Source: a virus. From it: DNA of 64,000 nucleotides. The DNA lies in the IMG/VR virus record IMGVR_UViG_3300002060_000001, positions 1-64,000 of that record. One strand, given 5' to 3'. The notes beneath the pieces were generated by a model. The model ran no database searches, had not been told where the DNA came from, and saw only the letters and a program-made list of their open reading frames with translations. Position numbers and translations under genes: made by a program. Of this stretch, positions 11,540-41,371 are shown in pieces. Each line of letters starts with the position of its first letter. Position 1 is the first letter of the stretch.

Positions 11540-13021
11540 ATGTCAGGTATGCCCCACTCATTCGGCGTCGAGCAGTCACTGCTAGGCGCTTTAATTTTTG
11601 ACAATCAACAGATTGATCTGGTCGCGGATAAACTCTCCGAGGCCTCTTTTTTTGCCGAACAACATATCATTGTTTGGCGCGCGCTTCAGCAGATACGCCT
11701 TAAGGGCGGGATAGCTGACGCAAACACCCTTCTTGAATTTTTTGAGCGGGAAAATCAGTTAAAGAAAATCGGCGGCGATGAGTACCTAGCCCAGATGGTC
11801 AATAACGCGGCCCTTGAGCCTGAACTTGATGAATACACTGAAATTCTTGTTGACCTTCAACACCGCCGCGCGATGATCCGGATAGGACAGGCGCTTGAGG
11901 CTAGTTCCGTTAAACCTGAAATCGGTCAGGACTCATCCGATATAGCCGTCACGGCCCAGACGGAACTTTCTGCCATAATGATGGGAACAACCGTAAAGCC
12001 GGCCACAAATATCAAAGCCGGAATGAAAAAATATGTTCAAAAAGTCCGCGCGGGCAAAGAGGGAAATGTTGAATCCTGCCTATCGACGGGCTCTGAAGTT
12101 CTTAACCGCAGACTCGGCGGGGGTTTTTATAATTCAGACCTGATCATTCTCGCGGGGCGGCCCTCAATGGGTAAAACGCAACTGGCTCTGACGCTTCTTG
12201 AAAGTATGGCGTCAAGCGAGTCCGTGAAAGAGATTTCACAAGGTAAGAAAGCCCTAGTTCCGTTTTTCAGTCTTGAGATGGATGAGGAAAGTGTGTTCGG
12301 CAGAATGCTGACAACAAATAGTCATAAACGGTTCGGTAAACGGTACTCCTCACGGAAAATGCGCTCATATGACATCCCTGATCAACAGCTTGACGCCATA
12401 GAGGAACATCTTGAGGAATTGAGCGAAACAATGCTCATTGATGATCAGGGCGGGATCAAAATAAGAGATATGGAGGTCAGGTGTCTAAATATAGAACGGA
12501 CACACGGGCGGCCCATTGATGCTATCCTTGTGGATTATCTGCAAATCTTAACCGGAGCGCCCGATGACGTTAAGGCGGGTAAGACAGCAGAGGTCACGGG
12601 TATCTCTGCAGGGCTTAAGCGTCTGGCTAAACGCTTTGATGTCCCCGTTATCGCACTCGCTCAACTTAGCCGCGGTGTTGAAAGCCGTGATGATAAACGT
12701 CCTCAACTTTCAGATCTCCGAGATTCAGGCGCTATTGAGCAAGATGCGGATGTTGTGATGTTTGTCTATCGTGAGGCGTACTATCACGAGCGCGCTGAAC
12801 CAGACAGCTCAAGCGACAAACATCAAGCGTGGTCTGTGAAGCTTGAAAAGATCAGAAACGTGATGACGATCATAACCGCAAAACAGCGTCTCGGCCCCGT
12901 GGGTTCAGATGATATTTTCTGTGATGTATTCACCGGATATGTAGGGGACTGCAGTCCTACAGATATGCACGGCTCCGCCGCTCACAATGATCCCCGATGG
13001 TCTGGAAATAATCAGGCCTAG
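11540..13021 (+). CDS. dnaB: Replicative DNA helicase DnaB
   Basis: Walker A GRPSMGKTQLAL, FFSLEM, Walker B ILVDYLQIL, VIALAQLSRGVESRDDKRPQLSDLRDSGAIEQDADVVMFVYRE. Confidence 0.95.
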   Translation: MSGMPHSFGVEQSLLGALIFDNQQIDLVADKLSEASFFAEQHIIVWRALQQIRLKGGIADANTLLEFFERENQLKKIGGDEYLAQMVNNAALEPELDEYTEILVDLQHRRAMIRIGQALEASSVKPEIGQDSSDIAVTAQTELSAIMMGTTVKPATNIKAGMKKYVQKVRAGKEGNVESCLSTGSEVLNRRLGGGFYNSDLIILAGRPSMGKTQLALTLLESMASSESVKEISQGKKALVPFFSLEMDEESVFGRMLTTNSHKRFGKRYSSRKMRSYDIPDQQLDAIEEHLEELSETMLIDDQGGIKIRDMEVRCLNIERTHGRPIDAILVDYLQILTGAPDDVKAGKTAEVTGISAGLKRLAKRFDVPVIALAQLSRGVESRDDKRPQLSDLRDSGAIEQDADVVMFVYREAYYHERAEPDSSSDKHQAWSVKLEKIRNVMTIITAKQRLGPVGSDDIFCDVFTGYVGDCSPTDMHGSAAHNDPRWSGNNQA

Positions 13022-13154: not shown

Positions 13155-13385
13155 ATGAATATGCATCATTTTAACGTAGATATGGCCATAAAACATGGAT
13201 TAGTCATAGCTATCATCCTGCAATACATGAACGATTGTCAGGGAATGAACGGCGGCGAACCCCTATCTTTCAGCTATGATGAGCTCTGTAAAAAATTCTC
13301 ATATATTCCAAAAGGTGAGTTGAAATCCGCCATAACCTATATTTTTCATAAATCTTTAGGCCCAGTTCAGGTTGTTGTAAGATGA
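13155..13385 (+). CDS. Hypothetical protein (76 aa)
   Basis: Track ORF in an AT-rich stretch. Its stop overlaps the next start (ATGA). Confidence 0.45.
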   Translation: MNMHHFNVDMAIKHGLVIAIILQYMNDCQGMNGGEPLSFSYDELCKKFSYIPKGELKSAITYIFHKSLGPVQVVVR

Positions 13386-14317
13386 CTAATAAAACTGAAA
13401 TAGAGGTTGAAAGCCTAGACGAGCCATATGTGACCGTTCCGAACTCTTTTGTCCGTGGATCACTCTCATCAAATGCAAAAATATTGATGATCATGTTGAA
13501 GTCTCACTCTGAAAACTGGGTCTTTAATAAAAAACAAATTGGTAAATCACTTGAATGGGGTGAGGGGAAATTAACAAAGCACATCAAAGAACTTGAGGAC
13601 GCTAATCACCTTCACCGCCGTCAGCCTGTTTCAGAATCGGGCGCTATAATACCCGGTCCGTGGATATGGCAATTAAGCTATCAAGGAAAAGCCGGACGGT
13701 CTGAAAAATCCGCCCCCCCCAAAATCCGAGGGGCGGAAACTCCGAGGGTCGGAAAATCACCCCCCATAAGAAGAAAAAATATTAAGAAGCCAAATTCTAA
13801 GAATAATCCCCCCTCCCCCTTTGATAAATCTTTAGGATCATTTCACTACATGACAGAGGGTGAAAAGTATCCGATTCCCGATGAGTTTTATCCAGGGCGT
13901 GACATCAAAGATTATGCGCTTATAGATTTGAGAATATATCCTCAAGAATACCGAGATATTATTGTTAATTTTTCAGAGTATTGGCGCGATAGGTCTAAAA
14001 ATAAGAATGGTAAAAAGACACCGCGCGGATGGAAAGCTTGTCTCCGAACTTGGTTAAATAAAGAGGCGGTTTCATTAAAAGCTAAGTGGCGGGAACAACC
14101 GTTTGATTATAGGACTAAAGAAGAAGGCGGCGCGGCGGCGGTTCCGGATGACATTCAGGAATATGCCCCAGAATACTGGGAACTTCACGTCCGGCGTTAT
14201 TCTGATCAAGGTGACTGGACAGCCGTCGGGCCTAAGCCGGATGAGGCTGACTGCGTTGCGCCGGATGAAATCTTGCAAAAATATGGTTTTCCGATAAATA
14301 ACGAATCACAGGGGTAG
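13382..14317 (+). CDS. Replication initiator/organiser-like protein (wHTH N-terminus)
   Basis: The N-terminal YVTVPNSFVRGSLSSNAKILMIMLKSH...IGKSLEWGEGKLTKHIKELEDANHL is winged-helix-like. A low-complexity linker follows, and the C-terminal FSEYWRDRSKNKNGKKTPRGWKACLRTWLNKE is typical of phage replication organisers. The gene sits between dnaB and dnaG. Confidence 0.5.
   Translation: MTNKTEIEVESLDEPYVTVPNSFVRGSLSSNAKILMIMLKSHSENWVFNKKQIGKSLEWGEGKLTKHIKELEDANHLHRRQPVSESGAIIPGPWIWQLSYQGKAGRSEKSAPPKIRGAETPRVGKSPPIRRKNIKKPNSKNNPPSPFDKSLGSFHYMTEGEKYPIPDEFYPGRDIKDYALIDLRIYPQEYRDIIVNFSEYWRDRSKNKNGKKTPRGWKACLRTWLNKEAVSLKAKWREQPFDYRTKEEGGAAAVPDDIQEYAPEYWELHVRRYSDQGDWTAVGPKPDEADCVAPDEILQKYGFPINNESQG
13704..13767 (+). 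repeat. Four tandem 16-17-bp A-tract/G-rich repeats followed by an AT-rich tract
   Basis: AAAAATCCGCCCCCCCC / AAAATCCGAGGGGCGG / AAACTCCGAGGGTCGG / AAAATCACCCCCCAT. The two central copies are 14/16 identical. An AT-rich stretch at 13768-13810 follows. Confidence 0.6.
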
Positions 14318-16950: not shown

Positions 16951-18639
16951 ATGCCTAGATTTGATGACGGGTTTAAAGAACAAATCCGTGATGCGGTCAG
17001 GGTCAGCCAGATAGTTGAAAAACATGTTAAGCTGAAACGGTCAGGCCGAGAACTTGTCGGCCTGTCCCCGTTCACGAATGAAAAAACCCCTAGCTTTTAT
17101 GTAAATGACGCGAAACAGTTCTATCACTGTTTTTCATCTGGGATGCACGGAGATGTGTTTGCCTTTGTGATGGAACTGCAGGGAATGACGTTTCCAGAGT
17201 CGGTTGAGTATCTCGCGGGCATAGCGGGGCTTGAGATGCCGTCCTATACGCCTCAACAGCGTCAACAGGACGACAGACGCAAGCTTTTATTTGCCGCGCT
17301 TAACGATGCACAGGACTTTTTTGTTCACTCATTAAAGAGTGAGGGAGCGGCTATCGCGCGTGAATACTTGGCTCACAGAAAGATTGATGAGGGTTCGGTG
17401 TCTAAATGGGGTCTGGGGTACGCGCCGCTCGTGTCCTCATCCCTGCCAAGCGCCCTAAAGAAACACAAAAAGGATATTTTGATTGAGGCGGGGCTTATCC
17501 GTGAAAACGCGCGCGGAACCTATGGGTTCTATCGTAACCGCCTGACATTCCCGATACGGGACAGGCAGGGCCGCGTCACATCATTCGGCGCCCGTGCGCT
17601 TGAGGATGATCAAAAACCCAAATATGTGAACGGTCAAGAAAGTCCGGTATTTAGTAAATCAAAGAACCTCTATGGCCTTAATGTATCGAGCGCCGCTATT
17701 GGTCTGAACCGTCAGGCGAACGGATTGATTTTGTCAGAGGGCTATCTTGATGTCATAGCCCTAGACCGCGCCGGAATACCACTGGGCGTCGCGCCATTAG
17801 GGACATCCGTGACAGACGATCACCTGACGGAACTCTGGAGATGGGGGCCGGAGCCTATTATTTGTCTTGATGGTGACAAGGCGGGTTATCGTGCTGCGGG
17901 AAAGATTATTGAAAAAACACTTCCCCGAATAGGCGGCGGGCGAACCGTTATGTTCGCAAGACTGCCGTCAGGACAAGACCCTGACGATGTTTTGCGTCAA
18001 GGCGGCCCTGAAGCTCTAAAAGCAATATTAAAATCCCCCGTCCCGATGCCTCGCCTGATATGGGAACGTGAACTTAATGTTGAGAGAACCGACACCCCAG
18101 AGCGGCGCGCGGCTTTTAAGGCGCGGCTTAATGAGCATACGGCGCTCATCAAAGACAAAGACACCGCCCGTCATTATCGGGACGCCTTCTATAGGTGGAC
18201 GCGGGATCACTACAGGCGAGGGCAGAAAAATGCATCCCAGTCACTGCAATCCGGCGGTGTCATAGGTCATAGGGGTCTTGGGATTTTAGTCAGTTGCATT
18301 GACAACCCGGAAATCCTTGAGGAAATTGATGAACAGTTAATCATGGCCGAGTGGTCTCCTGAATGTAAGGCTATTTTTGACCTATTGTTTTCAGCTTATA
18401 TGAACAATCTTGAAATCAATCGTGACGTTATAGTTGATGGACTTCTGGTTGATATGAACACAAACGCGGCTGATATTCTGGAATCATACCCGCGCGGAAA
18501 ACAGATAGAAAAAAACGGACATCAATGGCGTTCAATCATAGATTCTGTTTATCTCTTGCGGAAGGATGAGCATAAACCAAAGACCCTTGCGGACGCTATG
18601 CGGGAACAAGGCATCAGACGCAGAATAACAAAAAAATAA
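16951..18639 (+). CDS. dnaG: DnaG-type primase with a degenerate zinc-binding motif
   Basis: SPFTNEKTPSFYVNDAKQFYHCFSSGMHGDVF aligns to the canonical CPFHNEKTPSF...YHCFGCGAHG. TOPRIM motifs EGYLDVIAL and CLDGDKAGYRAA are present. Confidence 0.9.
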   Translation: MPRFDDGFKEQIRDAVRVSQIVEKHVKLKRSGRELVGLSPFTNEKTPSFYVNDAKQFYHCFSSGMHGDVFAFVMELQGMTFPESVEYLAGIAGLEMPSYTPQQRQQDDRRKLLFAALNDAQDFFVHSLKSEGAAIAREYLAHRKIDEGSVSKWGLGYAPLVSSSLPSALKKHKKDILIEAGLIRENARGTYGFYRNRLTFPIRDRQGRVTSFGARALEDDQKPKYVNGQESPVFSKSKNLYGLNVSSAAIGLNRQANGLILSEGYLDVIALDRAGIPLGVAPLGTSVTDDHLTELWRWGPEPIICLDGDKAGYRAAGKIIEKTLPRIGGGRTVMFARLPSGQDPDDVLRQGGPEALKAILKSPVPMPRLIWERELNVERTDTPERRAAFKARLNEHTALIKDKDTARHYRDAFYRWTRDHYRRGQKNASQSLQSGGVIGHRGLGILVSCIDNPEILEEIDEQLIMAEWSPECKAIFDLLFSAYMNNLEINRDVIVDGLLVDMNTNAADILESYPRGKQIEKNGHQWRSIIDSVYLLRKDEHKPKTLADAMREQGIRRRITKK

Positions 18640-19217: not shown

Positions 19218-19436
19218 ATGTCAAAAGAACAGCAGGTTTTTCTTAAGGTAAAAGATAGCTCTTCGACAAGAACTGTTGACTGGCCATTTCGTGAAATCCC
19301 TCAAATGGGTGACACGGTTTATGTTTTAGGTGTGGCTTATCGTGTCATCAATCGCGATTTTAGAACTGACGATATCGTTGATGAAGGCGGGGAGCCATCT
19401 GTCCGCATTAATGTCTGGATGGAACCATATAAATGA
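19218..19436 (+). CDS. Hypothetical protein (72 aa)
   Basis: ATG at 19218 with GGAG at 19207-19210 (MSKEQQVFLKV...). The longer track ORF 19092-19436 would overlap the previous gene. Confidence 0.5.
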   Translation: MSKEQQVFLKVKDSSSTRTVDWPFREIPQMGDTVYVLGVAYRVINRDFRTDDIVDEGGEPSVRINVWMEPYK

Positions 19437-21448
19437 AAGTCGGTTCAATATGTTCAGGGATAGAGGCCGCCAGTCAGGCCGCGCCTGATAATTGGGAGTT
19501 TGCCTTTTTTAGTGAAATTGAGAAGTTTCCGTCAGCGGTTCTGGCTCATCACTATCCTGACATCCCTAATCTCGGTGATTTTACAACTATCAAGGCGGGT
19601 GACTGGAAAGATGTCACGCTTCTGTGCGGCGGCCCGCCGTGTCAAACTTTCTCTATTGCGGGAAACCGTGGCGGTCTTAATGATGACCGTGGAAACTTAA
19701 CCCTTGAATACGTGAGGATGATGCATGACTTCGCAGACAATGGACTTATTTGGGGACTCTATGAGAACGTCCCCGGAATCTTGTCAGACAAAACAAATGC
19801 CTTCGGAAGTTTCCTTTCAGGAATTGTCGGTGGAGACGCTCCCTTATGTCCGCCCGACGCCACATGGGGTGAGCTCACAGACGATGACGGACAGCCACTT
19901 GGAACCTTTGGTTGGCAACAGATCAAATGGCCCAGTCAAGGTATGGTTGAGGGGCCACGGGCACGGGCGGCATGGGATGTTCTCGACGCTCAATGGTTCG
20001 GGTTGGCGCAACGACGCAAGCGTGTGTTTGTTGTCATCAGTTTTGCAAAAGACCGTGATCCCGCAAAAGTATTATTTGAGCGGAAAGGCGTGTTTGGGAA
20101 TACTCCGCCGAGCCGAAAAGCGGGACAAAGACTTACCGGAAAACCTATGGAGAGCTCTGGCGACAGTAGTAACAAAATCGGTGTTGATGGGGATAGGGAT
20201 AATGGCGAAAAAGATGAAATCTCAATTATAGACAGGGCCGCCTTTAACCAAGGGGCAAACGCCCTTTATGATCCTAAAATTGAGATAGGTGACTTGATGC
20301 CCGCTCTTGTCGCGCGCGGCCCCCACGCTGTCGGTCATAAAGAACCTGTCGGCGCTAGAATGGTAGCGTTTGGAGAGTATGAAATTGATGAAACAGCCTC
20401 AACTATAAAAGCCAGAGACTATAAAGATGCGACTGACCTTATAGCTTTTTCAGCTAAAGACTATGGCGGTGATGCCACCGAAAACCTAGCGCCGACAATG
20501 CGCGCGGGAAGCCATGATAAAAGTCACGCAAATAGCGGAAACTGGGTTGCTATAGCCGTTCAAGATGGACGTGAGATTGAAAAGAAGCAAAACGGGCTTG
20601 GTGTCAACACAGATAATATTGCCTATACTTTAGATAAAGCCGCAACCCAAGCAGTTGCATTTAAACCATCACATTATACTCGCGGAAAAGATGGTAAACC
20701 GTCAGAGATAACACCCCCCCTGACGGCTGACGCCGATAAAGGAGATCAAGACCCTGTTGTTTTAGCTCCAACACATCAAGAACCTTACACGCTTGAAATT
20801 AGGGGGCGTGATAGTGGCCGAGAACTTGAATATCGTGATGACGGAACGGCTAATTCACTGCGGGCCTCATCTGGCGGACGGGACGGAATGGGTGTCGGTG
20901 CTGTCGCATTTTCTCAAAACCTACGTGATGAAGTTCGACTGCAGGGCGGTGATGGTCAAATAGCGGGAGCGCTATCAGCAAGCCCCGGAATGAAACAGTG
21001 GACTTATATAGCCCAGACAGACAAAAAGCCTGTTTATGAGGTTCATGGGATGGATAGTAGGGTTTCTTTTTTAAGGGATGATTTATGCGGGACTGTCACC
21101 GCCAGATACGGAACAGGCGGAAACAATATTCCTATTACGCTTGACTATACCCCTTACGCAGTCCGGCGTCTGACGCCTGTTGAGTGTGAACGCCTTATGG
21201 GTTTCCCTGATAATTTCACCTTAATTGATTACACGAGCCGCGCGTCAGAGGTAAAGATTGCCGAAGACGTTGAACGGTATGCTATCAGAATGGGGTATGA
21301 TACGCAGGACGAAAATGTCATTCGTATGTTTATGTGTCCTGACGGCCCGCGCTATAAGGCTCTGGGTAACAGTTGGGCCGTTCCTGTTGTTAAATGGATA
21401 TTTGACCGGATAGAGGCGCAAGAATCAGCGCTGCGGGCGGCGGCATGA
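19433..21448 (+). CDS. Giant C5-cytosine DNA methyltransferase with an oversized variable region
   Basis: Motif I SICSGIEA, IV GGPPCQTFSIAG, VI ENVPG, VIII QRRKRVFVV. About 370 aa of variable region follow, then RRLTPVECERLMGFPDNFT and YKALGNSWAVPVVKWI (IX/X). Confidence 0.9.
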   Translation: MKVGSICSGIEAASQAAPDNWEFAFFSEIEKFPSAVLAHHYPDIPNLGDFTTIKAGDWKDVTLLCGGPPCQTFSIAGNRGGLNDDRGNLTLEYVRMMHDFADNGLIWGLYENVPGILSDKTNAFGSFLSGIVGGDAPLCPPDATWGELTDDDGQPLGTFGWQQIKWPSQGMVEGPRARAAWDVLDAQWFGLAQRRKRVFVVISFAKDRDPAKVLFERKGVFGNTPPSRKAGQRLTGKPMESSGDSSNKIGVDGDRDNGEKDEISIIDRAAFNQGANALYDPKIEIGDLMPALVARGPHAVGHKEPVGARMVAFGEYEIDETASTIKARDYKDATDLIAFSAKDYGGDATENLAPTMRAGSHDKSHANSGNWVAIAVQDGREIEKKQNGLGVNTDNIAYTLDKAATQAVAFKPSHYTRGKDGKPSEITPPLTADADKGDQDPVVLAPTHQEPYTLEIRGRDSGRELEYRDDGTANSLRASSGGRDGMGVGAVAFSQNLRDEVRLQGGDGQIAGALSASPGMKQWTYIAQTDKKPVYEVHGMDSRVSFLRDDLCGTVTARYGTGGNNIPITLDYTPYAVRRLTPVECERLMGFPDNFTLIDYTSRASEVKIAEDVERYAIRMGYDTQDENVIRMFMCPDGPRYKALGNSWAVPVVKWIFDRIEAQESALRAAA

Positions 21449-22047
21449 TTTATACAGATTTCAGCAAAATACCGCTCTTTGGTTATAATATGATTATGGC
21501 TGATCCGCCTTGGGAATTTAAACTGCGGTCAGACAAAGGTGAGGATAAAAGCCCTCAAGCACAATATAACTGCATGCCGCTTGATGAAATCTGCTCAATG
21601 AATGTGGCTGATCTGGCGGCGGGGAATTGCCTCTTATGGCTCTGGGTCACGAACCCGATGATTGATCAAGGGCTTGATGTTTTGAGGGCTTGGGGCTTTC
21701 AATTCAAAACGGCCGGCACTTGGGTCAAGATGTCAAAGTCCTGGACCGCCGACGGATGGAAAGACGGCAAAGAGCCTAAATTGAATTTCGGGACAGGTTA
21801 TATTTTGCGTTCAGCAAATGAACCGTTTCTTATCGGGACAATGGGGGATAACGATACAAGCAAATCCGTCCGTTCAGCCATAAGGGGTGCAGTTAGGGAA
21901 CATAGTCGCAAGCCCGATGAGGCGTACCGCGAGGCCGAGCGTCTTTTACCGAGCGCTTATAGGCTTGATATGTTTAGCCGTGAGGAACGGCAGGGATGGG
22001 ATTCTTTTGGTTTTGAAGCAGGGAAGTTCAATGAAAAAATGCAATAA
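21445..22047 (+). CDS. MT-A70 family N6-adenine methyltransferase
   Basis: IMADPPWEF catalytic motif and CLLWLWVTNPM...WGFQFKT...HSRKPDE. 200 aa. Confidence 0.85.
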   Translation: MIYTDFSKIPLFGYNMIMADPPWEFKLRSDKGEDKSPQAQYNCMPLDEICSMNVADLAAGNCLLWLWVTNPMIDQGLDVLRAWGFQFKTAGTWVKMSKSWTADGWKDGKEPKLNFGTGYILRSANEPFLIGTMGDNDTSKSVRSAIRGAVREHSRKPDEAYREAERLLPSAYRLDMFSREERQGWDSFGFEAGKFNEKMQ

Positions 22048-22612
22048 ATGCGGGGTAGAAAAGCCTAACACTTCAGAGTTTTTTGCAAAAAACAAAACTT
22101 GTGTTGGGGGGCTAACAAGCACTTGCAAAAAATGCATTAATTACAGAACAAGCCAGTGGAAAAAAGAAAACAAAATTAAAATTACTGACTCTGAAGACTA
22201 TCATAAAAAAGCAAGAGAAAGAACCCAAAGACGGACAAAATGGTTAGCTGAAAATGAACCTATCGTCTATCAAGCGAAGGCATTACTGACCTCTCTGGGA
22301 GATCGCTGTAATAAAAACAATTTATTCCGTGATGATGTTTTTAAAACAAGAAAATATATTGCCGAATGGCTTGAGCGACAACCTAACTGTGAGTGCTGTA
22401 ACGTAAAGTTCAGCATAGGAAAAAAAGACAAAGGCAGGGCCCTTGATTCATCTCCCAGTTTAGACCGTTTCAATTTAAAGATAGGATACACTAAGGAAAA
22501 CACAAAACTGATATGTTGGCGCTGCAATAATATCAAAAGGAACTACACCCAACACGACCTCAAGCTAGTAGCGGAATGGATGGATAAGGTGGAGATTATT
22601 GATGAAAAATAA
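22031..22612 (+). CDS. HNH / endonuclease VII-like (His-Me finger) nuclease
   Basis: ATG at 22031 with a GGGAAG SD. N-terminal CNKCG...CKKC Zn finger; C-terminal CECC...SPSLDRFNLKIGYTKENTKLICWRCNNIKRN. Markedly AT-rich. Confidence 0.65.
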   Translation: MKKCNKCGVEKPNTSEFFAKNKTCVGGLTSTCKKCINYRTSQWKKENKIKITDSEDYHKKARERTQRRTKWLAENEPIVYQAKALLTSLGDRCNKNNLFRDDVFKTRKYIAEWLERQPNCECCNVKFSIGKKDKGRALDSSPSLDRFNLKIGYTKENTKLICWRCNNIKRNYTQHDLKLVAEWMDKVEIIDEK

Positions 22613-22967
22613 TCTTTCTAAGCGTGAATCTCTTAAAATATGGCACGAGGTCACAACTCATATCGTCAAAGAAAAAATAATCGATTTAAGTAATCGGCAG
22701 CTTTTTATTATTCTGGAAATCTATCTCTTTGACGGGCCGCATACGATTAAATCTCTGTCAGCATCAATGAACACTAGCAAGGCGGTTGTCGTGAGGGCTG
22801 TCGATACGTTGAGCCAAATAAACTTTTTAAAGAGACGGCCAGACCCTCGTGACAGGAGATCTGTTTTAATCGTGAGAACCGCGCAAGGATCAATTTATGT
22901 GAACTCACTTGGCGACCTCATATCTCAAAAAATGAACCTTAAAGATGATGAAAAGGGACAGCTATGA
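22602..22967 (+). CDS. MarR-family winged-helix regulator
   Basis: LSNRQLFIILEIY...HTIKSLSASMNTSKAVVVRAVDTLSQINFLKRRPDPRDRRSVLIVRTAQG is the MarR hallmark. Confidence 0.75.
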   Translation: MKNNLSKRESLKIWHEVTTHIVKEKIIDLSNRQLFIILEIYLFDGPHTIKSLSASMNTSKAVVVRAVDTLSQINFLKRRPDPRDRRSVLIVRTAQGSIYVNSLGDLISQKMNLKDDEKGQL

Positions 22968-23300: not shown

Positions 23301-24962
23301 ATGGCCGAAAGTGAATTGATTAAAAAACACCCCGTTCCCGATGAGGCTCTTGACGGCGATATCATAATCCTAGCCAAAAAAGGCGCGGGAAAGACTGTCA
23401 CGGGCAAGAACATCGTTGAGGATTTATTGTCTCAAGGTGAACAGGTTGTCGTCATAGACCCTCTATCTGTCTGGTGGGGGCTGAAATCAAGCCCTGACGG
23501 TAAATCTGACGGATTTCCGATAGCTATATTCGGCGGCCCGCGTGGTGACGTACCGCTAAACCTAGACGCCGCTATCCCTTTAGCGAAAACGCTTGTCAAA
23601 AATAACCTTCCGGCGGTCATTGATTTGTCTGAATGGCTTGAGGAGGATCAGTCCTCATTCCTATCAGGGTTCTTGTCTGAAATCTATCAGGGCAATAAAA
23701 AGCCGATATGGATAGTTCTTGAGGAGGCGCATGAGTTTGCGCCCCAGACGGCAAATAGCGGTCAACAACATGCCTGTCTGGCTATGGTTCGCCGGATAGC
23801 CAAAGGCGGACGGTCAAAAGGCATTCGTCTCATAGCTATTACGCAACGGAACGCTGAATTGCACAAATCAATCGTCAGCGGCGCGAGTACCGTCATCGCA
23901 ATGAAAACAACCGCCCCGCTTGATCAAGCCCCCATCCTGACGTGGTTCAAGGGTAACGGGGACAAAGAGTTCTCGGCTAAGGTCAAAGACGGTCTGGGTA
24001 AACTTAAACGAGGCGAGGCCTTTATAGGCGCTGCGGATCAGGACTTTTTTGAGAAGGTTCAGTTTCCCCTTAACGGTACGTTTGACAGTTCATCAACCCC
24101 CAAGCGTGGCGAGACGCGCGATGAGCCCACGACACTGGCTAAGATTGACCTGACGGACATCAAAGAGGCTTTAAAGCCCAAAGAGGAACCCAAGCCTGAA
24201 AAGACCGTCAGCGCGGGTTCAGCATCGGCCTCGCAGTTGAAAGCTGAATATGAACGCGGAAAGTCTGACGCCGAGGCCGCGTCTAAACAGGACATTCGTG
24301 TCGGAAAAGATATAGCCTTTCAAAGAGGCCGTGCGTTCGGCCATAAGGAGTGCCTTGAAAATTTAAAGGTTCTGACGGATGAGCCTCAACCTTATTCCCC
24401 TTATGATAGTGAGGAGATCACCTCTCCCATCATTTATGGTGAGATTAAAACTGGAACTGTTATGGTTTCAGATGAAATTATGGGTCTGACGGTTGATGTC
24501 AAAACCTTTGATAAGAAAGTCCCAACATCAAACAGTAAAAAGAACGTATTGGTCCGGGCCGCGGAACGGGTCTATCCTGCTAAACTTACATGGTCAGCGT
24601 TATGCGCGACGGACGGGCGGAAATCACGCGGCGGACATTTTAACGGACTTAAAAAGAAAGCGCTCGATAGCGGACTGATACGGGATGAGGGCGGCCTTGT
24701 CGTCCTGACTTATAATCCACTGCCCCCCGGCGCAGAAAATCGGCCGGCGGCTGATCTGCTTGAGGAAAAACTCCCGCAACCCGCCCGAAAGATGTTCAGC
24801 GCTATCAGGCGTCATCCTCAACGTACTTGGGAGGAGATAGCCGAAATATTAGAGGTTCAGCCTCGCGGCGGACACTGGAATAGCGGACGCGCCGTTTTAA
24901 GAAACAGCAATCTTATAGATGAGAGAGGAAATTCTGTTCAAATACATCCAGATTTGACTTGA
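23301..24962 (+). CDS. HerA/FtsK-superfamily (DUF87-like) P-loop ATPase fused to two C-terminal wHTH-like repeats
   Basis: Walker A AKKGAGKTVTG, VVVIDPLSVWWGL, Walker B IWIVLEEAHEFAP, GGRSKGIRLIAITQRN. The C-terminus carries two similar modules with RGGHFNG and RGGHWNSG. Confidence 0.7.
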   Translation: MAESELIKKHPVPDEALDGDIIILAKKGAGKTVTGKNIVEDLLSQGEQVVVIDPLSVWWGLKSSPDGKSDGFPIAIFGGPRGDVPLNLDAAIPLAKTLVKNNLPAVIDLSEWLEEDQSSFLSGFLSEIYQGNKKPIWIVLEEAHEFAPQTANSGQQHACLAMVRRIAKGGRSKGIRLIAITQRNAELHKSIVSGASTVIAMKTTAPLDQAPILTWFKGNGDKEFSAKVKDGLGKLKRGEAFIGAADQDFFEKVQFPLNGTFDSSSTPKRGETRDEPTTLAKIDLTDIKEALKPKEEPKPEKTVSAGSASASQLKAEYERGKSDAEAASKQDIRVGKDIAFQRGRAFGHKECLENLKVLTDEPQPYSPYDSEEITSPIIYGEIKTGTVMVSDEIMGLTVDVKTFDKKVPTSNSKKNVLVRAAERVYPAKLTWSALCATDGRKSRGGHFNGLKKKALDSGLIRDEGGLVVLTYNPLPPGAENRPAADLLEEKLPQPARKMFSAIRRHPQRTWEEIAEILEVQPRGGHWNSGRAVLRNSNLIDERGNSVQIHPDLT

Positions 24963-25476: not shown

Positions 25477-25818
25477 ATGGTCGCTATAAATTTCACTAAA
25501 TTCGTTGATAAAGTTGAGGCCCGCGAAAAGCGGATGACTATAAGAAAAACTGCGCGCGGAAAGGTTGGGGATAAGGTTCAGCTATATACAGGCATGAGAA
25601 CATCTAACTGCCGTAAATTGATTAAAGATGACCCTGTTTTGACAGATATTTTTCCTATTGAAATTAACTCAAATGGGACGTTTTATAATCACCCGATAGA
25701 ATATCTTTATCAAAAAGACGGATTCCGTGATTTAGCTGATTTCCTAAACTTCTTCAATAAAACCTATGGACTGCCGTTCAGCGGCTTTGTTCATATTTGG
25801 GAGTGGGAGGGCGCATAA
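25477..25818 (+). CDS. ASCH/PUA-like domain protein (putative)
   Basis: FVDKVEAREKRMTIRKTARGKVGDKVQLYTGMR... fits the ASCH beta-barrel pattern (K-x-T-I-R then G-D...LY). Recognised by eye only. Confidence 0.5.
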   Translation: MVAINFTKFVDKVEAREKRMTIRKTARGKVGDKVQLYTGMRTSNCRKLIKDDPVLTDIFPIEINSNGTFYNHPIEYLYQKDGFRDLADFLNFFNKTYGLPFSGFVHIWEWEGA

Positions 25819-25819
25819 A

Positions 25820-26959
25820 ATGGGATTGCAGTGGTCTCCACAACAGCGTGAGGCGCTTGATCAAGTCGGTGACTGGCTTGAGCGGGCCGTCAAGGTCAAG
25901 AATTTTCAGAACAGTGATGTTCCTCAAGTTTTCTATCTGGGCGGCTATGCGGGAACAGGTAAATCAACCCTAGCCCGTTATCTGGCTGACAAACGCAAGA
26001 CTGTCTATGGCGCCTATACGGGCAAGGCCGCCGTCGTAATGCAAAAGTCAGGATGTGACGGGGCAAGCACACTTCATTCAACGATTTACAACGCCAAGCG
26101 TGACGGAATGACGGGGAAATATCGCTTTGTCTTTAACCATGATGGGCCGTGTAAATATTGTGATGTCATTGTCGTTGATGAAGTTTCAATGGTGGGTGAT
26201 AAAATCGGCTCTGACCTATTGAAATATAACAAGCCTGTTCTTGTTCTGGGTGATCCCGCGCAGCTTCCACCTATTAAATCCGGTGGATTCTTTACCGCCC
26301 GTGACCCTGATTTGATGCTTACTGAAATTCACCGTCAGGCTGAAAACAATCCTATCATCCGTCTGGCGGCTGAAGTGCGCGCGGGCGGCATCCCGACATA
26401 CGGTTCTTACGGACTGTCTGCCGTCATAGATACCGCTGAAATCACATCAAAAATGATCCTTGATGCTGATCAGGTTCTTGTCGGGCGCAACCGGACACGG
26501 GAACAATACAATGAACGCATCCGTGAACTCAAAAAGATAGAGCCGAAACTGCCGATTGTCGGTGATAGGCTTGTCTGTCTTAGGAATGATCACAATTTAG
26601 GAATATTCAACGGCGGAATATATAGAGTTGAAAAACTTGAGACGCCAGATGAGCCGCGCGACAAAGAACGGTGCGTTCGCCTTATCGTCCGTTCAGAGGA
26701 CTTTCCTGACGCTGATTTCGTTGATGTGACTGTTCGCAAGGAGTTTTTCACGGGCGGTCATCAGGACATATTCTGGAAAGAACTCATGGGACAACAGCAG
26801 TTCACATTCGGATATGCGCTGACGGTTCACAAAAGTCAGGGTTCACAATGGGATAATGTTGTCTTGTTTGATCAGTCTAAAGCTTTCGGGGATGAATGGT
26901 CTCGGTGGCTTTATACCGGAATAACACGCGCCGCTGAAAGGATCACAATAGTTCGATGA
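25820..26959 (+). CDS. RecD/Dda-like SF1 helicase
   Basis: Start at ATG 25820. Walker A GGYAGTGKSTL, Walker B VIVVDEVSMV, LVLGDPAQLPP, YALTVHKSQGSQWDNVVL. Confidence 0.85.
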   Translation: MGLQWSPQQREALDQVGDWLERAVKVKNFQNSDVPQVFYLGGYAGTGKSTLARYLADKRKTVYGAYTGKAAVVMQKSGCDGASTLHSTIYNAKRDGMTGKYRFVFNHDGPCKYCDVIVVDEVSMVGDKIGSDLLKYNKPVLVLGDPAQLPPIKSGGFFTARDPDLMLTEIHRQAENNPIIRLAAEVRAGGIPTYGSYGLSAVIDTAEITSKMILDADQVLVGRNRTREQYNERIRELKKIEPKLPIVGDRLVCLRNDHNLGIFNGGIYRVEKLETPDEPRDKERCVRLIVRSEDFPDADFVDVTVRKEFFTGGHQDIFWKELMGQQQFTFGYALTVHKSQGSQWDNVVLFDQSKAFGDEWSRWLYTGITRAAERITIVR

Positions 26960-32307: not shown

Positions 32308-35300
32308 CTATTTAGGAATAACTTGAATCTTAGCCAATTCCCCATTTGGGGTGGCTGATCTAGTTCCTGATTGAGATTGCTCTTGATATACAACCTTATT
32401 TAAATCAGTGATGTCATTTCCATTATCTTCCTCAAGCCCAAAGCAGCCGAGAGACGCGCTATTTCTTATCGTTCCTGTCCATGTTTTAGAAACAAGCAAA
32501 ACATTTGAAAAGCTATATTGCTGATTTCCCTCACCGTGATTAGGATTTATCCCTAACTGAAAATGAGAGATATTGGTTGTTCCGCCATCAACCCAAGATG
32601 TCCCATCGTGAAACCAGACTCTTACGTTTATTGATCCGAAATATTCAAATGGGCCGCCGCCGCCACCGCCGAAAGGATCACCTTCACTAAATCCAAAAAT
32701 ATCAATATTTCCGCTACCATAAAACTTATAAACATCATTAGAAGCAGCGCTTGTGTTCGCCTTGGCAACCATATGATCTGGCCCCGCAGGAGATGTTGCG
32801 TTTGTGCTTTCCGTGACATTTGTCGGCGTTCCGGGGGACGTTATTTTTAAATCTGCGGTAAATCCGCTCAATGTTTTGTTGATGGCTCTAAGAACATAGC
32901 TCTCTCCAGAGGCTAAATTATCTAACCCCTCGGTGAAAAAGACGACATCATAATCACCAAGATCGAATCCGAAATTGATAGCCGTTCCGTCTGTTTCATA
33001 GAAAAACTCTGACCTTAAGGCCACCTGCCAAAGCGCATTAGATGGGCCGACAAAAATCCCCGCCTGTGCCTCAAGGGTAACATTCGCGCGGATTCTATCC
33101 CCCGTAACCTCAAGTGCGTTTCTATATCCGCCATCAGCAGGAACATATATTGCAAAAAGATCAGCCCCGAATGTTACAGATGAATATTCGACACCCGCAT
33201 TATCAAACGCCTCCATAGAGAAAAAGGCATCCGTTGACCCGACCCCAACTTCTCTAAAGAAACGAGCATATGACCCGTCTGGATTTATAACCACATCCCT
33301 TAATTCCGTGAGGCGCGATGTGGATAATCCGCTTTCGATCTTTAAAGATACCGTGTCAACTTGTCCGCCCACTTCTTGACGTATTACCTCAAAACCCCAC
33401 CTGATAAATTTAATTCCAGGACGGACGGCGATTAGGGCGCTCCCAAGCGCTTCTATCTCTTGAGAGGCTGATCCTGTTGATGTCGAAATAATACTGCCGA
33501 AAAACATTCTTCCGCCAACTGTCGCATAATTTCCATCAAGGGCTATACCGACGATTTGGCACAAAACATTTCCATCTGCCGGAAGCTGATTAACGATAAA
33601 GTCCGCCCGCGCATAAAATGCACTGTCTGGCGATACAGGAAAGACGCCTTTTTGATAACAAGTCGCGGATTGCGTTCTGCGCCAGACCCTACCGTTTGTT
33701 GCATCTTGTATAAAATCACCGCTATTAGCATCTGGCACAGTCGTGGGCGATCCGCCGTTAACATAAGTCCAATCTTCGGGAAATCTGAATGTTGACGGAA
33801 GCGTGTCATACATTCTGGCGTTAAGATTATTATACTGTGAAACACGCGAAGTGGTCTCATCCGAAAGGGATTGAGTTAATGCTGTCACGCTAGTTTCAGA
33901 TGCCGATATTCTTCCCTCAATATCTTCTATTGTTGGGATTAACTGGACACTCTCAATTTCATACCAATCTGGGCCACCCGACCAATTATAGAATGACATT
34001 GTTGCAAATTTTGTCCCCGCCGTAGGGATATAAATATATTCATCTTCTTCAATAGATGAGCCGGGGAACACCCCGTTGCTGACCATATCTTTTATAGAAC
34101 TTCTGCCTTGATGATACGAAAAATCCCCTAAGCCAACATGCGTGAAACCACTTCCAAGAGATGAGTTTCTTTCCTGCATTCTAACATAAAGCCCTACCGG
34201 ATTTGCAGTCGATGCCTTATGTCTAACTATAATTTTATATTTTAATTTATCATCAATCGGGATAGCGGGAAAACCGTAAGCAACATTTGTGTCAGGCGCG
34301 CCCCTTATTCCTAGAGTTCCTGTAGGAGAAAGATATATTTGACTTCTATTATTAATGCTTTCGACGCCCTCTATACCTGCAGGCTTGCCATCTTCAGCAA
34401 TTTCAGAAAAATTCCAATTATATAGAACCTGACTAGAGGCGCCTGAAATCGTATCAAATCTTGTCCGCAAAGAATCTGTATCTGATATTCTGGCTGATTG
34501 TTCATCCGCGACTGCAACCAAAGATGATTGAGCCAAAGCGTTCGCCTCAAAAGCGTCTGTGACATCTGTCATCAACCATTCGCTAATAAGAACTTCTGCG
34601 TCATTTGTTGATCCGGCTAGACATTTTAGCGCAGGACGAAAAAATTCACCTAAAACGGCTGTCGCGGATAAATCCCAAACACCCGCATCATGTTCAAAAA
34701 CACCCAAAGACGTACCTACGAAATTTGCTAATCCGAACCCAACCCTGCCTCCTGCGCTAGAATAATCACCATTATATCTATTGCCAATAAATTCAATTAT
34801 AGCGTCTCCGTTCTGACTAAGCTTTACGACCTTGCCTTTTATTTTAACGGATATTTTTCTTGTTTGACTGGATTGAATGTAATTTTCAGGAGCATCTGCT
34901 CTATATAAATTTGCCCCGCCGCCGCCGAGAGGCCCAAGGGCTCTCCATGCGTTCCCGATATCTGGATCAACGACAAACTGTGATTGAGGAGGCTCCCAAA
35001 AAACAGGATCATAAAACACTCTGGAATGACCCAAATCGCCTTGAGCGTTTTGAATATTAGCGGTTAATTTTGTATCTAAAGATGATCTGGCACTAGCGGC
35101 GTCAGCCTCAACCGTATCAACCCTACTATTGCTTGCCTTTGTCGAAATATCAGATTCGGCGGTTGTCACGCGAACCTCAAGATTTTGTAAATCCGTTACA
35201 TTGGCTTTCCCTGTTTCAACATTCGCCACACGGCTATCAAGAGCCGTGAAGTTTGTTTCATTTGTTCCTATCCGGCCATCAAGGGCAGTTATATCCGCAA

Positions 35301-38300
35301 CCCTAAGAGCATTATCCGCCGCCTGAACTTGCTGTAAAGTTGTTAAACTACCATCAATATCTTGTAGCCTTATAAGTCCAGACGAATAATCTAAATCCCA
35401 GTTATATAATCTAACTTCACCGCCATCAGCTATGGCCGACCCTCTTAAGACTTCCACGCCGAATCTTAAATATTTCATATCTGGCTTGGCTAGTTTTAGC
35501 GCCGCCATATTAGCGGGTGTAAGATAAAGCTTTAATTGAAAAGGCCCAACACTGGGCTGTATTACTCTGGCCCGAACATCATATCCGGCCATGAATATAC
35601 GTCCGGCTATTACGGAGCCAGTTTCATCAATAGCTATACCCATTATTTGGCAATACGCACTCCCCGGAACCTCTCCGTTTGTCGGAACGCTAACAACTTC
35701 ACCATTAAATGAAACTGATACTGGCTGATCTTCCGAGAAAGGAATTATCCGCTTTTCATATACCGTGCCCGTGTCATATGTCCCCGCATGATCGCCATAG
35801 TTTGTATTTGTGAGGTTGAAATCCCAATCGTTTCCGATGTCTGTCCCGTCTTGATTTCCCCATTCTTCACGAATGAGAAAGTCAGTCGGGCCGCGGTTTC
35901 CAATTCTAACACTAAGACTGCCTATGGCCTGTGATCTTGTTAATGCCTCTGTAGATATGGCGCTATCAACGTAAGTTATGTTTGCCTTACCGCTTATGTC
36001 CGTTTCTAAAGTTCCGACACGGCTATCAATAGAGGTGATATTTCCCTGCGCTGTAGTGATGTCTGATTGCGCCGCAGAGATTAAACCATTTGCTGTATTT
36101 ATTTGCGCTTGAAGGTTTGCTGAAGCTGCAGATAAATTTTGTTGAGTTTGGGTTTCAAGCGCCGTGAGATCGCTATCTATCTGGGCTAAGTTAGCCGTCA
36201 AAGTAATTAAATTTTGTTCTGACTGCGTGATGGCTGTCTGGGCCGCAGGGTCTAAGTCCTGAAGGCTTAGGGGCCGCCCTATAGTTCTATCCCACAAAGG
36301 GCTTGCTAAATTACTAGGCAAAACAGTAATGGCCGCCGGATTAGATGACCTAACATCCATATATGCTGTTCTTACAAAATAAGAACCCGCATCTGTAATA
36401 ATCTGTTCACGCCTAGATGATTGACCTATTAAAACAGCCCCCGGAATATCCGTCGGAACCCCTTTAAATATTTCATATTTAAATGGTCTGACATCCGCCG
36501 GAATATCCCACTGAAGCCAGGTTTGCATAGATTCGTTGTCCGATTGAACAGTTAGGTTAGTAACCTCTGGAAGCGCTTGCGTGCCCGCAACAAGAGAGAA
36601 TGACTGCTCTGTCCATCCACCCGTTCTATTCAAACTATCAACAGGGCGAACTCTGACGTTTAGATCACCAGATGAAATAGCAACAAAGTCACGTCCATTT
36701 TCATCATTTCCATCAAGCCGGGTGTAACCTTCCGAATCCTCACTTCTGACCTCAACGTCATATCTTGAAACTCTCGGATCAGGCGAAAGACCCCAACTTA
36801 TCCGCACTGACGGGACACTGCTATCGCCGTCAATCTTTTGAAACTCAAGAATAGAGATTGACCCGTCTGGAACTTCCACAAGCGCACCTGACGGCAAATC
36901 TGTATATGTTTCGGGTTCAATATTTATATCAAGTTCAACGCGCGCATAACTGTTTGGATCGTGAGACTCTGCGCGCAAGAGACTTCCCATTTCGCGGTCA
37001 TCTGCCCCCTGAACACGGAATTGACGCAAGGAAATCTGATCACTTTCAAGTCCCCATATGCCATCAACGACAGGAACAGCGCTTAAGGGACTGTCGACTG
37101 ACAAAACGCTATGATGATCTTCACCATCAACCTGAACAACCGTGTTCCCCGTTACGGTTCTTATTTCCGTCGAACCGTCAGGCATAATGACATTGATTGT
37201 GAAAGTTGCTCCCGTTGTCGTGACAACACGGTCAAGAGTTAAGGATGTGGTTGTTGCGGCGGCCAAGCGTCCGCCCATACTATTAACTGTATAGCGATCA
37301 TCGTGAACCTTTACGATACGCCCGACACCCGTGAAATCTTGATCAGGTCCGACAGGGATATTAGCGTTACGGCCTTTAGAAGCTTGATCTTCAAGTTCCC
37401 ACCGAGCCATACGGACAGCCTGACCGACAGAGGGAGCGCCCCAAGCGGTGACTTCCTTTGTCTCAAATCCTATTTTCTGAATGAGATCATTGTCAGGCTC
37501 AATGTGAGGCGTCAAATTATACCCGTCCTCAATATTATTCCACCAGACGATAACTGCACTAAACTGATCCGCCGACTCTTTCTCATCATATGAGATTCTA
37601 TCCTCACCAGTGTTTGCCGGAACAATAATAGGTTTATTTTCATCAAGTTCAGGGCGATCCTGCGTAACGGTCAGGCCGTCACTTCCCCAGAAAACCGCAC
37701 CGCGAAATACTGACGCAACCATATTGAAAAGCTTAATCGCTTGAGCTCTTGTTTGAATAACAGCCGAAAGGCGATAGCGGGCTTCCATTCCGCCCTTGCC
37801 GTCAGGAACTTGTTCAGCGCAATATTTTGACGCCTCATAGAAAGACCAAGGATCAACGCGGCCCTGCGTAAGCTGTCCGGCCCCATAAAAATCATTCGTC
37901 GCTAAGTCATAAAGACACCACGCGGGGCAGTCAGAATATACAGTCTTGAATGTCCCGTCCCACTGGCCCGTATAGGTACGCGCGACAGGGTCAAAGTTCG
38001 TCGGAACTTTAATGTGAACGCCGCGCCAGTGATAAGAGCGCTTTTTAACCTGACTGCCAAGCTGTTTAAGATTAACCGTCAGTCCGACGTGAGCAACGCC
38101 GGGCCAGTTCAGTTTGACATCCGTGACCTCTGTCACGAAATCAAGATAGGTATCGTCTTGAATATTGGCCGCAGGAGTGTCGCCTGAATTTCGCGTGACA
38201 CGAATATCCCAAGGAGCACCGCCTGCCGGAAGGTTTACCGCATAGTCTCTCTGATAAGCAGATGTGCATTTCCCGCTAAAATAAGCATTACGCGCGCCCG

Positions 38301-41014: not shown

Positions 41015-41371
41015 TTAAGACCCATTTCGGAAATCTTGACCCATTTGAACCTGAACTGATCCGGTGTCGAATGAATCCTCTGGATAATCAATTCCCAGAG
41101 TAGAGCCGATGACACGGAATTTCAATGGGGCTGTTTTCCCCGGCGGCGTCCAGTTCACAGCCCCTCCCGCAAGGGTATCAAAAAAGTCCTCAATTATATT
41201 GGTTTGATCCCACGTCAGTTGGTTCCACGTCCAGACCCAAGTCTGTTTTTTGGCGTTCTGACCCTTTGACCCTGTCGCGGCATAGCGTTCCGCATAACGA
41301 AATTCCTTTAGCCCCAAGTCTTTAACAAGACGAGCGGATGAAAGTTGAATATCTGGAAATGCTATAGCCAT
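41015..41371 (-). CDS. Minor tail protein M-like
   Basis: 118 aa, directly after the tape measure. The call is mainly positional. Confidence 0.5.
   Translation of the reverse strand: MAIAFPDIQLSSARLVKDLGLKEFRYAERYAATGSKGQNAKKQTWVWTWNQLTWDQTNIIEDFFDTLAGGAVNWTPPGKTAPLKFRVIGSTLGIDYPEDSFDTGSVQVQMGQDFRNGS

Follow-up and report, generated by a model that had tools for sequence, protein, structure and literature searches.

The locus considered here raises the question of whether a single phage-encoded C5-cytosine DNA methyltransferase might read several unrelated DNA targets by means of a series of short target-recognition domains (TRDs). The window, i.e., the whole stretch of 64,000 nucleotides (nt) analyzed (positions 1 to 64,000 of the IMG/VR virus record IMGVR_UViG_3300002060_000001), harbors an intact open reading frame (ORF), located on the plus strand at positions 19433..21448 and encoding a C5-cytosine DNA methyltransferase of the Dmt-type family of 671 amino acids (aa). 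Multispecific C5 methyltransferases are represented by M.SPRI, M.Phi3TI, M.Rho11sI, M.H2I, M.SPBetaI, M.BssHII, and M.BceSV (PMC8936443, PMC12707154), and an initial annotation of the locus had proposed that the region lying between motifs VIII and IX contains about five tandem TRDs of the kind known from Bacillus phages. The reading that we favor, whose probability can be roughly set at 0.5, is that mini-TRD cassettes, each autonomous and lined up in tandem on a Dmt-type core, would make this protein a multispecific anti-restriction methylase; that the cassettes are autonomous TRDs, and that they address more than one target, are both plausible on the basis of the sequence features described below.

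The 671-aa protein matched PF00145 in three stretches (1.4e-31; 110.6 bits vs. a cut-off of 22) and TIGR00675 (1.1e-34; score 120.6 vs. a cut-off of 100.65) and, when aligned to HhaI and HaeIII with phmmer, displayed the C5 methyltransferase motifs IV, VI, VIII, IX, and X in the canonical order. These motifs correspond, on the plus strand, to PPCQ, which includes the nucleophilic cysteine (motif IV; aa 68-71, 19634-19645), ENV (motif VI; aa 111-113, 19763-19771), QRRKRVFVV (motif VIII; aa 193-201, 20009-20035, with QRRKR at 193-197), RRLTPVECERLMGFP (motif IX; aa 578-592, 21164-21208, with RRLTPVE at 578-584), and GNSWAVPV (motif X; aa 645-652, 21365-21388, with GNS at 645-647), and all the family-invariant alignment columns are present in the window protein. 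Two catalytic parts can be delimited on the basis of the motif positions, i.e., an N-terminal one containing motifs I-VIII (19433..20035), supported also by the HhaI/HaeIII alignment and by an AlphaFold predicted local distance difference test (pLDDT) score of mostly 88-98, and a C-terminal one containing motifs IX and X (21164..21388), with a pLDDT of at least 93 at both motifs. The gene is predicted to encode an active-looking phage C5-cytosine DNA methyltransferase, belonging to the family of the C5 half of P1 Dmt.

In the window protein, motif VIII is separated from motif IX by 376 aa (aa 202-577, nt 20036-21163), in agreement, also for the coordinates, with the approximately 370 aa originally reported, whereas the phmmer alignments gave about 96 aa for HhaI (174 to 270) and about 105 aa for HaeIII (164 to 269), values that fall within the 80-120 aa previously quoted for monospecific enzymes. 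The variable region of the SPR, rho11s, and H2 enzymes measures 212-276 aa, vs. 376 aa in the window enzyme. It is known that a threonine-leucine (T-L) dipeptide is central to two recognition loops (T250-L251 in HhaI and T237-V238 in HaeIII) and that a monospecific C5 enzyme possesses one T-L, placed 10-50 aa before motif IX (PMC2413257, PMC2790894). The occurrence of similar cores was evaluated using a strict signature, [AGSP]T[ILVM][KRT]A[RG], and a relaxed T-L core, [AGSPYNC][TSAP][ILMV]x[AI]. The former occurred 3 times vs. 0.004 expected from shuffles, while the latter was found 8 times in the variable region vs. 1.19 expected (about 7-fold, with 0/5000 shuffles reaching 8) and only 2 times in 326 aa of catalytic sequence; since both patterns were picked after the sequence had been seen, this enrichment is to be taken as indicative and not as a formal test. 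The eight relaxed-pattern cores, together with YTLDK, give nine T-L-like cores, whereas 2-3 relaxed cores are present in each of the three Bacillus multispecific enzymes (SPR, rho11s, and H2). The five strings quoted in the initial annotation were all found, starting at aa 322, 353, 397, 473, and 553; the proposed spacing of five modules every 50-90 aa was not, the region being organized in about nine T-L-like cores lying 22-44 aa apart and in about nine cassettes of 29-45 aa.

The composition of the variable region (11% Gly, 10% Asp, and just 25% hydrophobic residues) might suggest that it is not a recognition array, but a linker, disordered and rich in Gly and Asp, or a region devoted to protein interactions, with a short linear motif that resembles T-L. 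However, the T-L core enrichment described above is at odds with this possibility, and a matching composition is found in the TRD region of rho11s. The presence of an unrelated domain inside the insert was also considered and rejected, Pfam and NCBIfam detecting the methyltransferase only.

Coming to the putative array, about nine recognizable cassette types (A-I), each of 29-45 aa and with a distinct sequence, can be distinguished in the variable region. At least one T-L-like core is present in eight of them, the exception being cassette A, which is degenerate, and a hydrophobic element resembling VAF or IAF terminates most cassettes. All the coordinates that follow refer to the plus strand, and the frequencies to a set of 120 relatives. 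Cassette A (aa 203-240, 20039..20152) is the family-universal block following motif VIII (DPAKVLFE...TPPSRKAG), whose profile was found in 120/120 relatives; the T-L part coming after this block in the relatives (VAPTISAR..GGGGLGTD) is degenerate in the window protein. Cassette B (aa 266-300, 20228..20332; IDRAAFNQGANALYDPKIE..MPALVARGPHAV) was detected by its profile in 7/120 relatives and by short BLAST in 19 relatives, with a median identity of 71%. Cassette C (aa 309-337, 20357..20443; RMVAFGEYEIDETASTIKARDYKDATDLI), which contains the first motif of the initial annotation, was recognized by a generic module profile (independent E-value, iE, 6.8e-08) and by its own profile in 45/120 relatives, its median identity being 79% in 81 relatives (short BLAST). 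Cassette D (aa 338-376, 20444..20560; AFSAKDYGGDATENLAPTMRAGSHDKSHANSGNWVAIAV), with the second motif (generic profile iE 2.4e-11; own profile 77/120), represents the largest cluster, with 143 instances, of an unbiased census of T-L windows. The third motif lies in cassette E (aa 377-410, 20561..20662; ..KKQNGLGVNTDNIAYTLDKAATQAVAF; own profile 54/120). It is followed by cassette F (aa 411-446, 20663..20770; KPSHYTRGKDGKPSEITPPLTADADKGDQDPVVLAP), found in 23/120 relatives by its own profile and in 97 relatives by short BLAST, where the median identity is 79% and the best one 94% (in the relative P0378). Cassette G (aa 449-493, 20777..20911; own profile 65/120, generic profile at 466-489) has a pair of T-L-like cores, namely PYTLEIRG and, as the fourth motif of the initial annotation, ANSLRASSGG. 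Cassette H (aa 494-526, 20912..21010; SQNLRDEVRLQGGDGQIAGALSASPGMKQWTYI), which was absent from that list, was found in 66/120 relatives by its own profile, with an occupancy of about 80% and a median identity of 72%. Lastly, cassette I (aa 538-572, 21044..21148; ..DDLCGTVTARYGTGGNNIPITL) contains the fifth motif (generic profile iE 0.012; own profile 71/120).

Each cassette profile matched solely its own site in the window protein and a different subset of the 120 relatives. The generic module profile recognized four cores (those of C, D, and I, and the second one of G), that is, four of the five sites originally listed; the fifth, AYTLDKAATQ, escaped it, although it is embedded in the family-recurrent cassette E. 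Aligning the whole family globally with MAFFT gave 2213 columns that were unreliable in the variable region, and this alignment was used for occupancy alone. The cassettes are not copies of one repeat, since the self-comparison of the protein was weak (16 windows reached the threshold vs. 2.3 in shuffles), the best pair being formed by cassettes G and C (EYEIDETASTIKAR vs. EYRDDGTANSLRAS; score 31), and the DNA direct repeats within the gene are limited to two short pairs at chance level, which also argues for the absence of any recent duplication.

The position of cassette I raises the possibility that the array contains one active TRD only. T554, in the T-V core of this cassette, lies 24 aa before R578 and is the sole T-L core within 10-50 aa of motif IX, i.e., at the canonical distance, the remaining cores being additional to the one of a monospecific enzyme; hence, it could be that only cassette I (perhaps H) reads DNA and that the others are pseudo-TRDs deriving from past recombination, in a monospecific enzyme. 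The loss of the T-L part of cassette A in the window protein would fit this scenario, and inactive "pseudo" TRDs have reportedly been described in Bacillus-phage enzymes by Lange et al. in 1991. On the other hand, the active TRDs of the Bacillus enzymes are also far from motif IX, and proteins with an identity of about 50% in their catalytic cores have upstream cassettes that are 60-80% identical. Since a relic would be expected to diverge more rapidly than the core, this conservation disfavors their being relics, and we consider this explanation improbable.

The analysis of the family revealed an exchange of cassettes. Searching with the full-length protein at E <= 1e-10 retrieved more than 7800 relatives, from phages and prophages, which measure 384-920 aa and have variable regions of 162-491 aa (median 263). 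The enzyme is not an outlier of unique size, 20/157 full-length relatives having a longer variable region; at least eight relaxed cores are present in 4/157 of them, the family median being 3. As many as 77 architectures were counted among the 120 relatives, and the order of the cassettes is not fixed. The cassette types of the window cover a median of 44% of the variable regions of the relatives, and among the 45 clusters into which the T-L windows fell in the unbiased census, many have no counterpart in the window protein; thus, the pool of cassettes is large. When the variable region alone was compared with 1.84 billion representative proteins, 2724 clusters were retrieved at E <= 1e-3, all of them with partial matches of 1-5 stretches each, none covering the whole array. 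The catalytic motifs of this C5 family were found in 136 of the 138 new matches checked, the other two being fragments, so that the cassettes appear to be confined to C5 methyltransferases, between motifs VIII and IX. Both this confinement and the strong conservation of the cassettes are difficult to reconcile with a linker.

In the proteins that carry it, a cassette has a median identity of 60-80%, vs. 51% for the N-terminal catalytic domain, these medians being biased by the fact that short BLAST favors the more similar copies; the identity of the cassette exceeds that of the core in 57/59 proteins for C, 50/51 for F, and 55/57 for H, and the nearest relative differs from cassette to cassette. 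P0004, whose core is 83% identical to that of the window protein, shares only D and H with it, while P0241, with a core identity of 41%, shares C, E, F, G, and H; the maximum shared by any relative is five of the eight cassettes tested (B-I). Core identity and the number of shared cassettes gave a rho of -0.47, which is partly a sampling artefact since the two sets of matches were selected differently, and individual examples of this kind were relied on instead. Cassettes are shared independently of the relatedness of the cores. The modules differ from one another, are conserved, and pass from one relative to another, a behavior that would be expected of independent units of recognition.

The comparison with the multispecific enzymes of Bacillus phages disclosed both similarities and differences. 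Like the window enzyme, those of Bacillus phages are orphan C5 methyltransferases carried by phages, and their region between motifs VIII and IX is enlarged and contains several different tandem T-L blocks; the two groups also have in common the recombination of blocks among relatives, a similar composition, and a similar behavior in AlphaFold. The SPR, rho11s, and H2 sequences carry tandem ..Y...G(I/L)(S/A)(P/T)T(L/I)T(T/S)..G.G blocks, each tandem TRD bearing the T-L core that also recurs in the window protein. In profile-profile comparisons, the generic module profile of the window family aligned with the Bacillus TRD blocks in register on T-L (P = 5.5e-5, probability 66%), a further point against a linker. 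Cassette E matched KEDDEPAFTVNTIDRHGVA, a segment conserved in the Bacillus enzymes (P = 2.4e-5, probability 75%), and for cassettes C and D the match to the Bacillus T-L blocks had a P of about 2-3e-3; no similarity to the Bacillus enzymes was found by this comparison for the other cassettes. The top-120 homolog lists on the two sides do not overlap. Moreover, the Bacillus enzymes have a conserved helical segment after motif VIII that has no equivalent in the window family, and they have 2-3 relaxed cores in 212-276 aa, whereas the window enzyme has about nine, shorter, cassettes in 376 aa. The relatives of the window enzyme belong to phages of Proteobacteria and Actinobacteria and not, as for the Bacillus enzymes, of Firmicutes. 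Contiguous, non-overlapping modules of different sequence, each of about 40-50 aa, are said to have been described by Trautner et al. in 1996; the cassettes, with their 29-45 aa and boundaries set by eye, are at or below this range. Lastly, multispecificity has been demonstrated for the Bacillus enzymes and is putative for the window enzyme. As a whole, the idea of tandem TRDs like those of Bacillus phages is partly sustained by the enlarged region, the T-L cores, the in-register profile match, and the shuffling of the cassettes, but not in the number and spacing of the modules proposed at first, and the sequence similarity is weak.

Differences of another kind emerge from the comparison with monospecific enzymes and with the Dmt protein of phage P1. 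M.HhaI and M.HaeIII have the same catalytic motifs as the window enzyme, whose cassette I has its T-V core at a comparable distance from motif IX, but they have one T-L in about 100 aa, forming one small folded domain, instead of about nine cores in 376 aa. P1 Dmt belongs to the same family, with 45% identity over 64% of the window protein, and shares with it the block following motif VIII (cassette A, 2.6e-15) and cassette C (2.4e-20). In P1 Dmt and in the Dmt-annotated relatives from Salmonella phage SJ46 and Sinorhizobium phage NV1.1.1, a cassette-style variable region is paired with an adenine methyltransferase, as in the window; many other phage relatives come from Vibrio, Caulobacter, Burkholderia, Mycobacterium, and Gordonia phages. 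However, the variable region of P1 Dmt is 173 aa long, with 3-4 cassettes (A, C, and other T-L blocks), vs. 376 aa here, and the C5 domain of P1 Dmt (L004 1483-3747) occupies the N-terminal half of a protein whose C-terminal half is a Dam domain (PF02086). The window enzyme lacks the PF02086 fusion, and a separate gene of the MT-A70 family overlaps its 3' end by 4 nt. The C5-Dam fusion (PF00145 and PF02086) is found in many relatives, and many others are standalone proteins without it.

Some observations, discussed in this and in the two following paragraphs, weigh against the favored reading, the first being the structural models. AlphaFold2 was run on a 109-sequence alignment and, at the same depth, on a control, P0121 (locus L002 459-1970), i.e., a genuine multispecific enzyme 98% identical to M.Rho11sI. 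In the window protein, the catalytic parts were confident, whereas aa 232-560 stayed under a pLDDT of 50, with hardly any secondary structure. The catalytic parts of P0121 were confident, too, and its T-L segment 311-350 reached a pLDDT of 72-84, vs. 27-57 for segments 251-310 and 351-440, which hold the other two T-L cores. One confident TRD was thus obtained for the control vs. none for the window protein, a difference that may depend on the noisier alignment of the latter (2213 vs. 1333 columns). The search for discrete modules with AlphaFold, suggested in the initial annotation, yielded no folded modules in the window protein, and a nearly identical picture in the genuine multispecific control. 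Since AlphaFold gives a low confidence for bona fide tandem TRDs as well, the model is uninformative in this respect, and the low pLDDT weighs little, if at all, against their presence. The result obtained for P0121 also invites caution in judging tandem TRDs by pLDDT, and its single confident T-L segment would fit, as far as the model can tell, the docking of one module at a time. The same pLDDT values of aa 232-560 might be invoked in favor of a linker, together with the absence of Pfam and PDB matches for the insert; given that the genuine control is similar in AlphaFold and in composition, and on the grounds set out above, a linker seems very unlikely.

Further points concern the cassettes themselves. 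The cassette types were defined by printing the variable regions of the relatives, with boundaries set by eye; the iterated profiles drift somewhat (e.g., that of E matches upstream of A); five of the nine cores were missed by the generic module profile and were called from family recurrence and inspection; and the generic cassette profile had no match in the PDB at E <= 10. BLASTP between the window protein and the Bacillus enzymes aligned motifs I-VI (35%) and motif IX only, with nothing significant in the variable region; therefore, the resemblance is architectural and at the level of motifs, and the window protein is outside the Bacillus family. The record of P1 Dmt states that the protein methylates the adenine of GATC "and perhaps" C5 cytosine, and no characterized member of the Dmt-type family, the C5 half of P1 Dmt included, was found in the literature.

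The cassettes are also short beside a whole crystallized TRD, and far below the 96-105 aa that separate motifs VIII and IX in HhaI and HaeIII. In the smallest family members, with a variable region of 162 aa, inspection by eye already shows 3-4 T-L-like cores. To regard each cassette as an autonomous TRD would thus amount to the strong claim that nearly all members of the family are multispecific. These data could be explained by a composite domain, in which the cassettes are hairpin or loop units smaller than a TRD that jointly form one or two surfaces; the enzyme would then be mono- or bispecific, or relaxed, and the exchange of cassettes would tune one specificity without adding others. In agreement with this possibility, HhaI-type recognition requires two loops (PMC2790894), and cassette G has two cores; AlphaFold gave no independent folds, and the family lacks the helical scaffold found after motif VIII in the Bacillus enzymes. 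Nevertheless, the nearly free content and order of the cassettes, shared without any link to the relatedness of the cores, are hard to square with co-adapted parts. Besides, the DNA-contacting residues of HhaI and HaeIII follow the scheme NNN-x10-TL-x3-CCC, within about 20 residues around T-L (PMC2413257). Since the whole set preceding, including, and following T-L fits in about 20 residues, a cassette of 29-45 aa can in principle hold it. A composite domain appears unlikely, though it deserves more consideration than the relics.

The variable region consists of about nine different short cassettes, arranged in tandem and drawn from a large pool exchanged among phages. According to the reading that we favor, a single cassette at a time would dock on the catalytic domain and motif IX, completing the recognition surface, so that one polypeptide could methylate several unrelated targets, like the multispecific enzymes of Bacillus phages. 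In combination with the putatively co-transcribed adenine methyltransferase of the MT-A70 family, the enzyme might shield the phage DNA, during its replication, from several restriction systems of the host.

As for the genomic context, the window belongs to a tailed phage, in which the methyltransferase is located in the replication module, beside a second methyltransferase. Genes for a DnaB-like helicase (11540-13021), a helicase loader (13382-14317), and a primase (16951-18639) precede it. The second methyltransferase (21445-22047, plus strand), of 200 aa and of the MT-A70 family (N6-adenine type), matched PF05063 (2.9e-28) and no NCBIfam model; the 4-nt overlap suggests that the two genes probably form one unit. 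This two-methylase unit parallels the fused C5-Dam protein of phage P1. It is followed, on the same strand, by a gene (22040-22612) for a Cys-rich protein of about 190 aa, resembling endonuclease VII (PHROG endonuclease VII/endonuclease, about 5e-16; no Pfam match), which might act as a partner nuclease or as an endonuclease of the homing type, and, just past the methylase and endonuclease genes, by that of a MarR-type winged-helix regulator (22599-22967, plus strand; Pfam). The replication block also includes a gene for a 553-aa protein (23301-24962, plus strand), without Pfam matches and with weak P-loop-type PHROG matches (terminase large subunit, FtsK/SpoIIIE-like). A gene for a Dda-like helicase lies at 25766-26959. 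On the minus strand are located a very large ORF of the structural region (32308-39372; 2354 aa), presumably coding for a tail or host-recognition protein, and the genes for the tape measure protein (41371-45114) and the major head protein (49167-50171), as well as an ORF of 869 aa (59211-61820) that matched no PHROG family at E <= 1e-5.

The assignment to an alphaproteobacterial phage made in the initial annotation is plausible, the capsid being closest to those of Rhizobium phages (about 34% identity) and the named nearest relatives of the methyltransferase being proteins of Ochrobactrum, Brucella, Sinorhizobium, Rhizobium, and Litorimonas; the contig is metagenomic. The same 671-aa gene was called on the public metagenomic contig ENA ERZ27298442 k119_318031 (71.4 kb), the protein is present on four contigs, and no near-identical DNA was found in known phages. 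Two lineage-specific insertions were observed in the catalytic parts on the plus strand, i.e., ATWGELTDDDGQPLGTFGWQQIKW, of 24 aa (aa 143-166, 19859..19930), between motifs VI and VIII (occupancy about 0-20%; own profile in 5/120 relatives), and a helical one of 32 aa (aa 603-634, 21239..21334), between motifs IX and X (occupancy about 10%; 6/120 relatives), modelled by AlphaFold2 as two helices with a pLDDT of 73-81. An overlapping ORF lying in another frame inside the methyltransferase gene (19725-20231, plus strand) was treated as spurious.

In the literature consulted, no multispecific C5 methyltransferases were found outside Bacillus-type phages and prophages, nor was anything found about how the cassettes of the Dmt-type family are arranged or which C5 targets its members have. 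Although the principle has long been known, the Dmt-type family, the repertoire of its cassettes, and their scale appear to be undescribed. A more far-reaching proposal, which we put forward only tentatively and hold to be rather doubtful, is that the Dmt-type C5 enzymes encoded by phages that infect Proteobacteria and Actinobacteria might constitute a very large and unrecognized multispecific class, built from a shuffled pool of dozens of mini-TRDs of about 30-45 aa, and that the window enzyme might methylate at least five unrelated motifs; in that case, it would have more targets than any characterized C5 methyltransferase, and the family would offer, ready-made in nature, a combinatorial library of minimal modules for DNA recognition. 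If the cassette arrays of this much larger family work like those of the Bacillus enzymes, no smaller natural unit for the recognition of C5 targets than the cassette would be known, which would help both the prediction of methylase specificity from sequence and the engineering of targeted methylases. The interpretation of methylomes would be affected as well, since many 5-methylcytosine motifs might come from one prophage gene. The unexplained C5 half of P1 Dmt would gain a function, and a broad anti-restriction strategy based on methylation would be common in the phages of Gram-negative and actinobacterial hosts.

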